From Psammoneis japonica (taxonomy: Eukaryota): DNA of 64,000 nt. The notes beneath the pieces were generated by a model. That model saw only the letters and a list, made by a program, of their open reading frames with translations. It was not told where the DNA came from and searched no databases. Positions 1 to 13,200 of this stretch are shown in pieces. Position numbers and translations under genes: made by a program. The number at the start of each line of letters is the position of its first letter. Within the stretch, counting starts at the first letter, position 1. The stretch lies in contig QPGO01000089.1 of NCBI GenBank assembly GCA_008632985.1, positions 248,001-312,000 of the forward strand. The letters run 5' to 3'.

Positions 1-2566
1 CTGCAATTGACACAGACTCAAGTTCTCTCTTCAGCATGCTCCTCAGTGTGAGCAGAAGGGTGACCTTGTCAACTCCTGATGTGACAAGATCCACAACAAA
101 CTCAATGATCTGCTGTCCTTCCTGACATGCAAAATGCCTGCTGTCATCAACCCTGGTCACATCTCAGGAAGCCCAAGCTCCACAAGGCAGTTCAGCAGGT
201 TGCCAAGTGCAGCTGCAGACTCAAACAAAGTTGTGAAAGAGATTGTGAGGTGCATCATGGGTGTGGAGATGTTCTTCTCATTTGTTGCTGGTGGAGTGAG
301 GTGTTGGCTGTGATGCTGCTGTGTTTTGTGGATGTCAGAGAGTGGCCAACACTTCAATGCTGAGCCTTGCTTGCCCAAAACTCCAGAGCAAACTCTGGCA
401 TCAGGGAGATCACACAAGGAACAGGAGTCATTTGAAAATGTTTTGTCATTGACAACAAATTTGTTTTCACAACAAAAAATGCAAAACTCTTGTGTGAGAA
501 AATGTGGTGCACAACATCACACTGGAGAGTGGTTGGAGCCAACAACTTTGTGGGAACTCAGCTGAAATGTTGTCTGATCAAAGGCACTTTGATTTGCACA
601 CTGAAGAACAACACCTTTGATCAGATGACATCAATTGACTGCCCAAGAATTTGACCTTCAAACAAGGACAGATGGGCAGACTGACAGCGGTCATTTTTGC
701 TCTCCTGCACAAATTTGGCACAATGACTCTGAGAGCCATGATGACTCCTGTTGAAACAGAGAACAAACAACAAACCTGCTGGAGAGAGGAGGAGAAGAGT
801 CAAGGAAGGCACCAGCACCCACACTCTTCAGTTTGAAAAAGACATTTTGGCACAAAAACAACAACTCTCACAACAGCCAGAGCTGCTTTCCTCTGCTTGT
901 GTGGCTCTTGCACCCCCCCCAGCCATGTTCCAGCCATGAGTGCCAAACAAAAAAGTGAAAAAACGGACATTTTGTTGAGCCGATGCAGATTTCGTGTGGC
1001 TCATTTGTGGGTGCTTGAGTGTGCTAAAAAGACCCACCACCTGAGTGTGCCCAAACAGGCAGCTGCTCTTCATTTCTCATTCTCATTGAGTTGAGAAAGC
1101 ACCCCCTTGACACAAGGGTCATTGATCTAGAGTTGGAGTTTGCATTTGTTGTTTGTCAGCATGGTCTGACAAAACCAGCTGAAAGTTCACGTCATGAAAA
1201 CATGAGCTTGCCAAGATTCCAGGGATCCACAAATCTGATTCACAAAGAGTGCAGACACCATGTGCATCATGAAGGAAGTGATGAAATGTGGTGTCTTGCA
1301 TGCCAAAATGGACCTTTTGCATTCACAAGATTTTGCGCTGCTTTTTGCACCACAGAAAGTTGACACAAAACAGACCAGCAATGCACAGAAACAACCTGGC
1401 AAGCCAACTTAGATGAGGCTGATTTAACGGCACTGTTTTTGTGTTGAGCACTTTAAGATCAGGGGGGCAAGGTGGCCTGAGAAGAGGGTGTGCAAATTTT
1501 GCAGTTGAAAGTTGCTGAAATCTCAACAAGTTCATGGTCATTGACATGATCAAAAAAGAAATGGAGCCAACAAACTCAACCAGCAAAACATGATGGCTCT
1601 GATGGCATCATTTGCATTGCCACAAGGTGGAAAAAAGCAGCTGCTGCTGTGTGTGGTCATGTTCATTGCCAAGTCAGCTTCACTTTTGGGGCTTGCTTTT
1701 TACTGAAAAAACAGCTCTGATGTGTTCCAGCTGTGCATGAACAAAAAAATGCAAAAAATGGACATTTTTTCATGCAGACATGGGTTTCACATTGTTGCTG
1801 ACTTGAGAACAAACTTGCAAACCCAAAACTTTGTCTCTTGCACTTGCAGTTGCATCAAAAGCATCCCAGCACAAAGAGCCATGGATCTGGAGCTGAAATT
1901 AACACTTGCCCTTGTGTGACTTGACAAGCCAATTAAAAACCCATGTTGCAAAAAGATTGGCTCACCAAGATTCTGCATTGCTTTGGATCTGGTTTTGTGC
2001 CATTTGCCCAATGCAAAAAGAGCACTTTCGAGCTTGTTGTGAAAACATTCCCAACTTTTGAAATGTGCAAAGATGCCAATGGTTGAACCGCCACAGAGTT
2101 CTGCATGGAATGACACTGGTTTTTTGGCGCAACTTGCCATGGCGGTGTGTGCTCATTTTTTAACAACTTTTTTCAACTTTGTCATTGCAGCAGTGGCACC
2201 AATCAACAACATGCATGAAGTGGACACTGTGTGTGTCACGAAGGAGGTGATGAGCTGTGGTGCCTTTTGTGCCAAAACAGGCCTGTTGCAATCACAGGGT
2301 CTGCTCTCCTTTTTTGCATCACAGAATGGCCACGTTGATGCACGAGGTTGCCAAAACAGATCTGAAATGCACAGAAACAACCTCACAAACCAGGTTTTGG
2401 ATGCAGCAGATTTGCAGCATTGTGCCAGCGTTTGAGGGTTTTGCCAGCACAAATCTTGCACACAAAAAAGATGTCGAGTCTGTCCAGCGTTCACAAAAAT
2501 GTCCAAACGTGCTGATTGACGCACTCTTTTAGTTCAAAAAATGCTGCCGGCACATCGCACATCATC

Positions 2567-3092
2567 CAAGGGCTGAGATGAGCACATGGCTCAAGGAAAT
2601 GGTCAGTCCTGCCTGCTCGCGACTCAGCACTTTGCTGCAGTGAAAATTGCACAGGAGTCCAATGATGACAAAAACGGTCAGATTGCTTCCGCTGACAACA
2701 ACGTCTGCTGCATGCAACGCACATTCCTTGTTCTTCAATGCATGAATTAAAAACTTTGATCATCAAATGCAGTTGCTTCGCTGGCCATTGCCAAAATGAT
2801 GCTGCGAACTGTGTTGCGCACAAATCCACGGTGCTCCGTGCGATTCGTCTTTCACTCGGAGGATGAGCTTCCCATTTGTCAAAGCAACTGCACCCAACAC
2901 CCAAAATGGCAGGTTCGAGCATTTGCAATCACAGAATGCAAATTGCACGCAGCTGACATTGTTGTTGGTGGAGTTGTCTGACTGTTTTTGTCATCGTCAG
3001 ATTCCTGTGCAATTTTCACCATGGGAAAGTGCTGAGTCACGAGTGGGTGGGACTGACCACTTCATGTTTGCGCACGCTCATCCAAGCCCTTG
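2567..3092. repeat. Degenerate ~115-bp inverted repeat pair (2567-2682 / 2977-3092), possible MITE relic
   Basis: The reverse complement of 2977-3092 aligns to 2567-2682 (shared tggtcagtcc, gactcagcacttt, gtgaaaattgcacagga, atgacaaaaac). Confidence 0.8.
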
Positions 3093-10200: not shown

Positions 10201-13200
10201 TGGATGGAATGAAATCGCTGGCGGGAATGTTGCACATCACAACATTGCGCCCAACATTTGCGCCAGCACAATTGGAAGTTGACACTTGCAAGCAGCAATC
10301 TTGGTTTGCCATTCCCATCTCAACAGCATCTGCTTGACTTGCTGTCATTCCAGCTGCCGGGGTTTTGCTGTTGAATGTTCCACCAACGAAGCACATGTCA
10401 CAGCGCGGGTTCATGGATTGAACGTGCAGCACTGTGTGTTCTGTCTCTCTCTCTCTGGCAATGAAGAATTGACTGCATTTTGCCTTGCTCTGCCAGGCCC
10501 ATGCCATGTTCTCCCACTGCCTCAAACATGAAATGTTCAAAGAAAACCTCAGCTGCGCCAAAGCTCTCCGGCATGATGACACCATCAGTGTGCAACATGC
10601 TGTCTCTCTTTGTCACAAGCATTGTTCCCGTGCTGATGCCCATTTGATCACAGCAAAAGCAAAGCTGGTCCCAGCCCTCACTTGTGCTGGGGTTGTCCTT
10701 GGCCCATTTTCTGCACACTGGCATCACCAAATCTGCCATGTCTTCACAGAATTCTTCACTCCTTCTCAGTGTCCCCTGCAAGACTCATCAGCATTTGCTT
10801 GGTGTGTCGAGCTGAAGGAAGGTGCAACTGCTTGTCATGCAGTGAGTCACACACATTTTCATTCACATCTTGCAGCAGGGTCATTGCAAATGACAAACAG
10901 AAGTGTTGATTTTCTGCTGTCCTGCCCAGCAGTGTGTCTGAGCCTGTGCGAGAGTCACTCGCAAGCACAACGCATGCACAGCACACTGTGTGAATTGCAC
11001 AATGCCGTGGCATCAGCATCATGCAGCAGCATCAGCATCATGCTGCAGCATCACGGGAGCATGGACATTGCACCGCCGGATCAAGTTGCGCGCAGACTTG
11101 GGCGGCCACAGAAGGAGGAAAGGTGGTGCTGGGTGGGCGGGCACATGATTGATGGAAAAAGGTGATGGGATCATGTGGGCAAGAAGGGGGGCAGCAGAGC
11201 AAGGTGGCAGGCTTGTTGCTGTGGTGCAGCAAATGTTGAGTGTTGGCACTCTGGTTGGCTGTTGACAAAATCAGAAAGAAGGGCCCAACAGGCAAGTGCC
11301 AGCTGCAGCACCATCATGCCTCCTGGAGATCTGGAACATTTGGTGCACAACCTGAGTTGTGGCATGCAGCTTGAAGTCAAGGGAGGGGGGGGGGGGGAGC
11401 AAGAGAGCAGATGGGACAAGAAATGGTGCACTGGCACACAGAAGACACAGCAGCAAGGCACCTGCTGCAGCAAACACAGGCTTTGCTGTTGGAAAAACAA
11501 AAGTTTTGCATTCTCAGACAGCTCCATGGTTGGCATGAATTGCAAGTTTCATGGAAGGAAGTTTAAGTGCCACGCAAGTTGCGCTGTGTCAAGAGGTGAA
11601 GTCAAGTCACAAAGACTCTTGTGTTGAAAGCAATGTGAAGGGGGGACTTGCTGGGGTGGAAGAGAAGTCCCGGCTCGGTCCACTTGCCGGGACAAGCTGG
11701 TTGTTTGTTTTGCAATGGGCTCAATTTTGTCATCCAAGCAGTTGAGAGCAAGCTCCAAATGCAGTTTTGACATGAAATGACCAGTTTCTCAAGGATTTTC
11801 CTTCCAGTTTGTGCTGTGGTGCGAGTGCTGTGTGGACAGCAGCTGCAGCTTGGGAGCCAGCACCAGATGACAACCCAGACACACCAGCTTGCTCTTCAAA
11901 AGAGCTGCAGTCACAACCAAATAAACCAGATGGCAGTTGCCAGAAGCAGATCTCTTGCTTGAAGCAAAGCTGCTGCTGAGTTGTTTTTGCACGTGAAGAA
12001 AAACAACAAGAAAGCTCATTTCCAGCTGCAAGTGGGGCTGGGTTTGCAAGTGAGAGCAGGAGTCGTTCTGCAAACTGGGGCAAGCAAAGTTGCTGGAGAC
12101 AACTCAAAGTGGGGTCATGTGCATGATCTTGAAAAAAGGGAGCAGGAGCACTGGATCAAAAGAAGAGAAAAAATGCACTGCAAAGGCAAGGGTGCCCTGC
12201 CGCAGTTGCAAAAAGCACACCAACTGGCTTTGCTCCTCAGACGCACCAGCCGCACCCCTGCAAAAGAGTTTTGTTGTTGCTGTGTGTCTGTCTCATGCTT
12301 GTCATCAAAGTTTTGCATGCACTGGACAAGCTGATGATTTGAACAAGGTGCTGAAGCAACACACACAGGCGCGGGGCGTGTGCATGGAAGTGGGCCACGT
12401 TTTGTGAAGGAGTTTCTGGCAATGCAGAGCAGCAGAGACCCTGCTGTGCAATTTAAAACCACACACACACACAGATGAATCATGGTGAGGCACTGAAAAG
12501 CATGACAGAACAAAATGGTGAGGGAACAAACTGCAAAGCATGGTCATGGTGTGCAAGCACAAAACTCTTTTTCTGTGTGTTGCATTTTCGACGCACTGGC
12601 CGGAGGACTGCTTCAATCTTGACATCTCAGGCTTTGCTTCTGACAAAGTGATGAGGACTCCAATGTTTGTGCCATTGGCTGCAGGCATCCCATCACCTGT
12701 CATTGTTTTGTCTTTTGCTGGTGCAAATGCAGTGGGGCAGGGACTGTGTTGATTGCGATCACAACACATGCGCAGGCAGATGGGTGCTGTGCCAGTTTTT
12801 GGGGGCTCAAGTGATTGTTTTGTGGGGCTTGTGTGATGTTTTGTCAGTGGTCATTGCATTTGAGTGTTTTGGCCAATCAGAAAACTCTTCCTGAGATTTG
12901 CGACATTTTTGTCAAAGGAAAAGAACAAATGAAATGCTCTTTCTTTTGTTGCAACAACAAATTGCAATTGGCCATGTCGAAACAAAGGCAATTTGTCAAT
13001 GTCACATGTGATGTCATTTGTGCTGTTTTTTTAACAACTTTAATGTCTTCTGTCTGTCTCAAAAACGAGTCAGAATCCCCCCACTTTTCTCATTTCCAAA
13101 ACACCTCTTTTGCTCAGCTGCATGACATGAGTGAATGACAACAAAATCTGCAGAACCATTTTGGAGACATTTGTGCTTTTGTGCAATCGTGTGGCATGTC

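Follow-up and report, generated by a model that had tools for sequence, protein, structure and literature searches.

In a 64,000-base stretch of the genome of Psammoneis japonica (assembly GCA_008632985.1, contig QPGO01000089.1, positions 248,001 to 312,000; the whole stretch analysed is called the window below), per-kb counts show that the dinucleotide TA is nearly gone from four sharply bounded blocks amounting to 25,567 b (25.6 kb). We propose that these four nuclear blocks have probably been the substrate of a saturating process that converts TpA to TpG or CpA (A:T>G:C) in place, and that the TA sites surviving in the context YTAR (Y, pyrimidine; R, purine) are its residue. The window is eukaryotic nuclear DNA, since it has few long frames and no tRNA, and a contig matching it has a GT..AG joint. 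It probably represents a second organism with TpA-specific hypermutation, after the alga Bigelowiella natans, and adds new detail on the specificity of the process.

Loss of TA and gain of TG and CA in place

The four depleted domains retain 66 TA sites vs. 1,668 elsewhere in the window, with an observed/expected ratio (O/E) for TA of ~0.04 across them and edges that span a few hundred bases or less (Table 1). The initial annotation had placed the depletion at 1021-13045. This range is genuinely depleted, but covers only part of a feature (domain 1) that runs from the start of the window, with its first TA at 1025 and none earlier, and ends at ~16250. Counted per kb, domain 1 has a TA O/E of 0.00-0.10, 3-33 CG and ~100-125 each of TG and CA. 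The depleted stretch around the small domain extends over ~22703-24406.

TA drops from 43.8 per kb in normal DNA to 2.6 per kb in the depleted domains (0.06 of normal). CG is at 0.40 of its normal level and TG/CA are up 1.5-fold, with overall base composition almost unchanged. The losses of TA (41.2 per kb) and CG (34.1 per kb) add up to 75.3 per kb and match the 73.9 per kb gained in TG+CA; nearly all lost sites therefore became TG or CA. The depleted blocks look like the ordinary DNA of this genome with TA and some CG turned into TG/CA by transitions. AA was unaffected (depleted/normal ratio 1.00; 1.06 for AA+TT), and a T is therefore required 5' of the adenine. The GC dinucleotide is up 1.30-fold and AT down to 0.80, both as predicted by TAC>TGC and TAT>TGT.

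The loss of CG behaves differently. In 500-b segments of the depleted domains, TA O/E is uniformly 0-0.13 and CG O/E spans 0-0.98, with no significant correlation between them (Spearman 0.22, P = 0.12). Between 52 and 54 kb, CG is still at 0.6-0.7 while TA is at 0.03-0.10, and the small domain has a CG O/E of 0.62-0.98. TA loss and CG loss are separate processes, because CG O/E varies without tracking the uniformly low TA O/E. The CpG decay in these blocks would be a slower and patchy process, most simply deamination of 5-methylcytosine. As in CpG decay of silenced, methylated DNA, the CG>TG/CA part is patchy and shows only a weak effect of flanking bases (CG context hazards 0.23-0.66); such decay leaves TA alone, however, whereas the TA loss here is uniform and saturated. 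Diatom transposons are described as CG-methylated through DNMT5a (PMC9998398). We also observed that CG is nearly absent (O/E 0-0.20) at 1-2000, 50464-50963 and 55878-57377, vs. an O/E of 0.6-1.0 in other parts of the same domains. This unevenness within one TA-depleted block points to parts that differ in age or in methylation history.

Within the domains, repeats that BLAST on the letters overlooked or gave a low score emerge once the sequence is reduced to purines and pyrimidines. CA faces TG at 10/19 of the differences in pyrimidine-purine (YR) steps between the tandem 255-b repeats, and at 10/20 of those between the arms of the hidden inverted repeat (Table 1). Over seven repeat pairs in the domains this share was 35/60, vs. 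4/73 for six pairs in normal DNA (P = 1.6e-11), and the ratio of transitions to transversions was 169:45 vs. 172:129, respectively. To arrive at CA in one copy and TG in the other, an ancestral TA or CG must change twice. As the repeat copies differ mainly by CA/TG pairs, conversion occurred in place, after local duplication. The context of isolated transitions outside YR steps was not distinctive. No long strand patches of TG vs. CA were significant, and both half-site classes (YTAY and RTAR) are depleted throughout; runs tests of RTGY vs. RCAY in the four domains gave z = -1.57, -0.56, -0.29 and -1.97.

Contigs of a sequencing run, X1, carry the same depleted sequence. They differ from the window by 0-3 letters in domain 3a (word depth 53-73) and by 1-2 letters in domain 3b, and contigs of up to 6 kb carry depleted sequence at the word depth of the normal flanks. 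Each contig has a single sequence with no mixture of TG and CA; the pattern is therefore not due to modified bases misread on both strands. Some related contigs differ from the window at CA/TG sites. One over 52485-52835, seen in X1 and in a further run, X2, has CG at three and TA at two of the window's CA/TG sites (5/6 differences shown), and at 52561, 52565 and two sites near 54380 the CA or TG of the window is matched by TA in related contigs. X2 resembles an RNA run: one of its contigs leaves out 54283-54392 (joint 54282-54393), a segment bounded by GT..AG that has the look of an intron. X2 does not cover most of the depleted stretch, from which we draw no inference.

Many X1 contigs pile up around the island that divides domain 3. 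Between 15 and 19 of them overlap 54005-55033, with a summed word depth of 4261-5217 that stops in the bin starting at 55342, and X1 contigs are also numerous on 48.7-50.7 kb. In this multi-contig stretch (54000-55378), TA is at normal levels in the right part, from 54626 to 55377, whose end coincides exactly with the TA boundary; the left part, 54000-54460, is poor in TA but has normal CG. At position 55033 the window reads ATAC vs. ATGC in 19 contigs.

Flanking bases and the direction of conversion

From a tally by eye of 1021-13045, the initial annotation had proposed that about 23 of 29 surviving TA sites were YTAR, about six were half-sites and none was RTAY. A full count of NTAN tetramers (N, any base) reproduced these figures exactly, with 23 YTAR (TTAA 12, CTAA 5, TTAG 4, CTAG 2), six half-sites (TTAC 2, CTAC 1, GTAA 1, GTAG 1, ATAA 1) and 0 RTAY. 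YTAR is the rarest class in the TA-normal DNA of the window (302 YTAR, 405 YTAY, 454 RTAR and 506 RTAY of 1667), and the probability of finding at least 23 YTAR among 29 sites drawn from such DNA is 1.3e-12. The 66 survivors of the four domains comprise 41 YTAR, 15 RTAR, 8 YTAY and 2 RTAY, proportions that are unequal to those of normal DNA (chi2 82.7, P = 8e-18), in line with what had been suspected. Survival relative to normal DNA was 0.202 for YTAR, 0.049 for RTAR, 0.029 for YTAY and 0.006 for RTAY.

Seen as trinucleotides, TAT survives at 0.012, TAC at 0.028, TAG at 0.061 and TAA at 0.148, i.e. 94% of TAG and 85% of TAA sites are lost. Per-strand hazards ordered by the 3' base were 0.37 (A), 1.38 (G), 2.13 (C) and 3.14 (T). 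The idea that the hierarchy YTAR > half-sites > RTAY reflects a target read per strand was borne out by a two-parameter model in which the two strands are hit independently (per-strand survival 0.452 for TAR and 0.085 for TAY; chi2 1.59, df 2, P = 0.45), while uniform survival across the TA classes was rejected (P = 1e-19). Bases further out also matter: among the 66 survivors vs. normal DNA, A is found at +2 in 58% vs. 30% and G in 14% vs. 21%, and T at -2 in 45% vs. 27%. The typical survivor is a TTAA within the junction of a T-run and an A-run.

We consider it highly likely that these figures reflect a genuine sequence preference that acts per strand, with T 5' of the adenine, a +1 preference of T >= C > G > A, and protection by A at +2. 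In the process we propose, the two strands would be acted on independently; on each, the adenine would have to follow a T, with the rate set by the bases on its 3' side. RTAY, exposed on both strands, would almost vanish; half-sites would change on whichever strand is exposed (YTAY>YTGY, RTAR>RCAR); and YTAR would decay slowly, above all as TTAA within T-run/A-run junctions.

The survival figures alone are unable to separate two rules, TAY>TGY and RTA>RTG, which differ in their products: YTAY becomes YTGY under the TAY rule or YCAY under the RTA>RTG rule, and RTAR becomes RCAR or RTGR, respectively. It should be noted that TAY>TGY and RTA>RCA are the same event in a duplex. Relative to normal DNA, the depleted DNA has an excess of 29.5 per kb in YTGY+RCAR vs. 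9.1 per kb in YCAY+RTGR (1795:1129 in depleted vs. 1551:1336 in normal DNA; Fisher P = 3.7e-9). CG decay is estimated to add ~7-11 per kb to each product class, leaving a TA-derived remainder of ~19-22 vs. ~0 per kb; it feeds both classes about alike because the CG flank hazards are weak. Simulated forward mutation of normal DNA from the window pointed the same way: the 4-mer spectrum of depleted DNA was best matched by the TAY rule (chi2 720, r 0.98), vs. chi2 1969 and r 0.913 for the RTA rule and chi2 1979 and r 0.961 for no rule. In a simulation with the hazard model, every non-TA 3-mer was within 0.82-1.26 of the observed value. The product comparison suggested at the outset, of TGY/RCA with RTG/CAY, thus comes out on the TAY side in both counts and simulation.

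Known systems, alternative explanations and significance

In the literature on TA>TG/CA domains, the only relevant work found was a preprint on B. natans. In mutation-accumulation lines of this alga, two integrated viral regions are reported to mutate ~1000-fold faster than the remaining genome, 230 of 231 new mutations in the viral insertions being A>G or T>C and all of these at TpA; the genome has 124 clusters that are TpA-poor and CpA+TpG-rich, with 324 coding sequences at a TpA frequency of 0.0018, and an ADAT2-like deaminase is proposed as the agent (Mettrop et al., bioRxiv 10.64898/2026.01.13.699255). The window resembles this description in that the loss is of TpA only, to TpG/CpA, and confined to certain regions; most genes of the B. 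natans clusters are likewise described as unannotated. The TpA frequency is 0.0026 in the depleted domains here vs. 0.0018 in the 324 coding sequences, and with a Rho(TA) of ~0.04 and Rho(CA) and Rho(TG) of ~1.7-1.8 the domains lie beyond the cut-offs given in the preprint. The two cases differ in that the targets measured in B. natans are viral insertions still at 3.3% TpA, as reported, whereas the blocks here are saturated, show no viral or transposon domain in 185 frames and include genes of a decayed cellular type. The preprint's main text describes no flanking-base preference, two-strand kinetics or CpG loss; its Table S2 may hold contexts. The organisms probably differ too. We take the source of the window to be a diatom-like alga of the SAR (stramenopile, alveolate and rhizarian) group: the closest named relatives of its ureide permease are diatom proteins at 42-50% identity, with no match above 52% in a collection compiled from NCBI, UniRef, JGI and MMETSP. 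The process in the window would be of the same kind as this TpA-specific hypermutation.

Repeat-induced point mutation (RIP), a process of Neurospora and other fungi, offers a second parallel, being transition-only, dinucleotide-specific, active on both strands, sharply bounded and gene-destroying, with copies that diverge independently after duplication. RIP, however, changes C:G to T:A at CpA and creates TpA, whereas here TpA is destroyed and CpA/TpG are made, formally the reverse. As to duplication, parts of the domains have related X1 contigs and internal repeats, while tandem and dispersed repeats in TA-normal DNA are unmutated. Hypermutation by ADAR or APOBEC3 likewise consists of clustered, deaminase-driven transitions with a neighbour preference and is used on foreign or repeated sequences, but the substrates of these enzymes are RNA or single-stranded cDNA and the changes form strand-coordinated tracts, of which there are none here, and APOBEC alters C, not A.

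A TAY/TAC preference had been thought to echo the UACG context of TadA-family adenosine deaminases, the natural TadA site being U-A-C-G (PMC11472039, PMC10586758). The likeness holds for the 5' base: TadA, ADAT2-3 and TadA-derived adenine base editors deaminate an adenine preceded by U/T, and the TadA site has a pyrimidine at +1. It does not extend further. As described, TadA needs C at +1, G at +2 and an RNA hairpin loop, whereas the target here is chromosomal DNA on both strands with T >= C at +1; TAT survives no better than TAC, most TAG and TAA sites are also gone, and at +2 A protects and G is not needed. In family, the TadA idea agrees with the agent proposed in the B. natans preprint; in motif, only the 5' T agrees.

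What agent could convert TpA in this way? We infer an adenine deaminase that works on DNA, flips out its target base and makes A>I changes, which are read as G; it would be aimed at silenced chromatin. Adenine deamination as the chemistry is put forward only tentatively. Its nearest competitor in mechanism is an enzyme that modifies the thymine of 5'-R-T-A-3' such that it pairs with G, for instance through oxidation of the TET/JBP type (giving 5-hydroxymethyl- or 5-formyl-uracil) or through amination (giving 5-methylcytosine). Since RTA>RCA and TAY>TGY are one duplex event, all the counts fit this route equally, and its TpA>CpA change is the formal reverse of the CpA>TpA of RIP. Enzymes that modify T at TpA exist in other protists, making base J in kinetoplastids and 5-hydroxymethyluracil in dinoflagellates; base J in telomeric repeats, however, lies in a Y-T-A and not an R-T-A context, and no modified T is known to us that passes for C at the near-complete rate this route demands. 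Base flipping may also come more naturally to an adenine between pyrimidines (T-A-Y) than to a T between purines. The only direct rate data, those reported from B. natans, are unable to separate the two routes. In favour of the thymine route, diatoms are described as having RID-related DNMT4 enzymes whose function is not known (PMC9998398). On balance we regard the thymine route as improbable.

The remaining explanations fare less well. Hyper-editing of RNA from A to I by an ADAR- or TAD-like enzyme, followed by reverse transcription and re-insertion, would account for A>G changes with a 5' U preference, as both ADAR and wobble-adenosine deaminases typically produce (10.64898/2026.01.13.699255; PMC11472039, PMC10586758). 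However, both strands are saturated everywhere with no strand-coordinated patches, repeats in place, tandem and inverted, show independent CA/TG outcomes, no reverse-transcriptase or integrase domain was seen in the 185 frames of at least 70 amino acids, and the B. natans mutations are reported to have arisen in place in single-copy DNA. ADAR, moreover, prefers a 3' G, opposite to the order T >= C > G > A found here, and we give this route very little chance. Equally remote is the erosion of TA as collateral of repair, in which repair of deaminated 5-methylcytosine recruits an error-prone polymerase of the Pol eta type: the TA and CG losses do share the same domains, and the WA>WG signature of Pol eta (W, A or T) includes TA>TG, but AA is not depleted at all where TA is at 0.06 of normal, and the uniform TA loss is uncorrelated with that of CG.

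It is also hard to credit that there is no mutational preference and that TA sites were kept by selection, as stop codons or TTAA sites, were newly created, or reflect a sequencing or assembly artefact such as misread modified bases. YTAR does include TAA and TAG, and X1 could be the assembly's own data. Selection for stop codons was rejected, as RTAR also has TAA/TAG and yet survives 4x less (Fisher P = 1.8e-6); an origin of survivors as new TA from TG/CA was rejected because Y__R contexts hold 1292 of 5576 TG/CA sites (23%) vs. 62% of survivors. Differences between coding repeats are unconstrained, X1 contigs of up to 6 kb carry one sequence at flank-like depth, and the same process is reported as de novo mutations in B. 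natans.

The proposal of in-place, TpA-specific conversion under a TAY rule has several observations against it, which should be weighed together. Adenine- and thymine-directed chemistry yield the same double-stranded outcome and are inseparable by sequence. TA-normal DNA nearby in the window, and not a true ancestor, stood in for the ancestral state. The two small domains taken alone give product asymmetry ratios of 1.17 and 1.35 (P = 1 and 0.26, respectively). Of three half-sites polarised by TA-bearing related contigs, one fits the TAY rule (ATAA>ACAA) and two break it (ATAG>ATGG and TTAC>TCAC). In comparisons of internal repeats, the CA/TG differences whose flanks are conserved include five in R__R and three in Y__Y, where a strict TAY rule predicts none unless they are CG-derived. 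As run X1 may be the window's own assembly data, it does not provide independent confirmation. Repeats in TA-normal DNA, at 29.2-31.0 kb, 35.3-36.4 kb and 37.6/44.1 kb, are untouched.

TpA-specific hypermutation of DNA has been reported in one other alga, very recently, with the dinucleotide as the sole specificity stated and an ADAT2-like enzyme as the candidate. The window presents an end state of such a process, with more than 16 kb at a TA O/E of ~0.04, and adds to the B. natans work a flank rule, two-strand kinetics, saturation, content that does not look viral and a probable second lineage. It illustrates that a viral appearance is no prerequisite for a target, and that the CpG decay of these blocks is a process apart. 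A quantitative specificity gives a direct biochemical test for candidate enzymes and narrows the search for them; the flank rule is also a prediction for the 231 published B. natans mutations and an aid to finding and dating such domains elsewhere. A broader notion, which we hold to be rather unlikely as a whole, is that an enzyme aimed at chromatin recognises 5'-T-A-Y-3' in double-stranded DNA, flips out the adenine and deaminates it, is common to distant algae of the SAR group (diatom-like here, a chlorarachniophyte in the case of B. natans), and beyond its use on integrated viruses erases any silenced DNA, including duplicated cellular genes. If true, this would be the adenine counterpart of RIP and a natural sequence-selective DNA adenine editor, with the flank rule as its biochemical signature.

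Content of the blocks and neighbouring features

We scanned 185 stop-to-stop frames of at least 70 amino acids from the domains against Pfam. None matched a transposon, viral, reverse-transcriptase or integrase family, although heavy mutation may hide their origin. The curated cut-off was reached by one of the 185 (a RanBP zinc ribbon), with an ARM_LRRK2 match below cut-off, vs. 6 of the 41 frames scanned in TA-normal domains, among which no deaminase family was found. The frames of the depleted blocks lack tyrosine and look like dead genes.

The zinc-ribbon frame, an open reading frame (ORF) of domain 1, looks like a decayed cellular-type gene. Between its tandem 255-b repeats there is no sign of constraint: differences fall 16/15/15 by codon position, with 32 non-synonymous vs. 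4 synonymous codons. Scans of viral contigs with this ORF and with P0118 gave no match, and a metagenome scan with a single protein found no relative.

The three overlapping frames of 52160-54003(-) may be read as a tandem pair of decayed members of a ~240-amino-acid family with armadillo-like repeats. A phmmer search with 52160-52810(-) gave 91 proteins at E <= 0.001 (best 1.8e-22, 39% identity), and in alignment A1 this frame extends beyond the C-terminal end of the family, with homologs 23-34% identical. No Pfam family was matched at cut-off. Word-index protein searches gave no match for 52160-52810(-) at near lengths or for 5544-6146(+) at longer lengths. Many aligned relatives of the armadillo-like family end in C-S-C-A-A or a similar motif.

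Table 1. Coordinates of the depleted domains, repeats and frames in the window (b, bases; aa, amino acids)
Feature	Position	Strand	Remarks
TA-depleted domain 1	1-16250	.	42 TA in 16.2 kb; continues past the left end of the window; encloses 1021-13045
Hidden inverted repeat	2567-3092 (2567-2780 + 2880-3092)	.	214 b, 90% in purine/pyrimidine space only
ORF, 403 codons	6011-7219	+	RanBP2-type zinc ribbon PF00641, 27.9 bits (cut-off 27); FSFK-type repeats; no tyrosine
Two tandem 255-b repeats	6419-6928	+	within ORF 6011-7219; 82% in letters, 95.8% in purine/pyrimidine space
Left arm of 97-b inverted repeat beside small domain	22527-22623	+	arm TA-normal
Small TA-depleted domain	22750-24260 (limits for counting)	.	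6 TA in 1.5 kb vs. 9 TA in 175 b directly outside
Right arm of 97-b inverted repeat beside small domain	24424-24520	-	partner of 22527-22623
TA-depleted domain 3a	48964-54450	.	dense TA stop at 48963, next TA 49321
Three overlapping open frames	53374-54003, 52829-53512, 52160-52810	-	armadillo-like repeat family
TA-normal island dividing domain 3	54451-55377	.	TA dense from 54462-54626 to 55377, then absent until 57697
TA-depleted domain 3b	55378-57696	.	zero TA in 2.3 kb
Octopine-dehydrogenase-like frame	57981-58499	-	ordinary gene adjoining the last domain
EamA transporter	59651-61072	+	beyond the last domain
98-b tandem repeat	61383-61730		beyond the last domain
Ureide permease	62741-63982	-	closest named relatives diatom, 42-50% identity; none >52% among 117 matches

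The small domain lies between the arms of a 97-b inverted repeat that are 97.9% identical (22527-22623 / 24520-24424; 112 b at 98.2% in purine/pyrimidine space), with no target-site duplication seen. Each arm retains four vulnerable TA, though the 1.7 kb enclosed is depleted. Domains 1 and 3 have no terminal repeats at their outer edges. Short CpG-dense stretches lie at two domain edges, 48901-49000 (15 CG in 100 b) and 16220-16260, and may be unmethylated promoters at which the silenced block stops.

The tandem array at 29236-30992, with units of ~188 b that are 75-86% identical, is TA-normal; local repetition alone therefore does not attract hypermutation. A gap of 318 N lies at 17594-17911, with a lone N at 18870, and repeats of 190-240 b surround the gap (17912-18102 vs. 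18375-18547, and 18631-18869 vs. 18979-19190).

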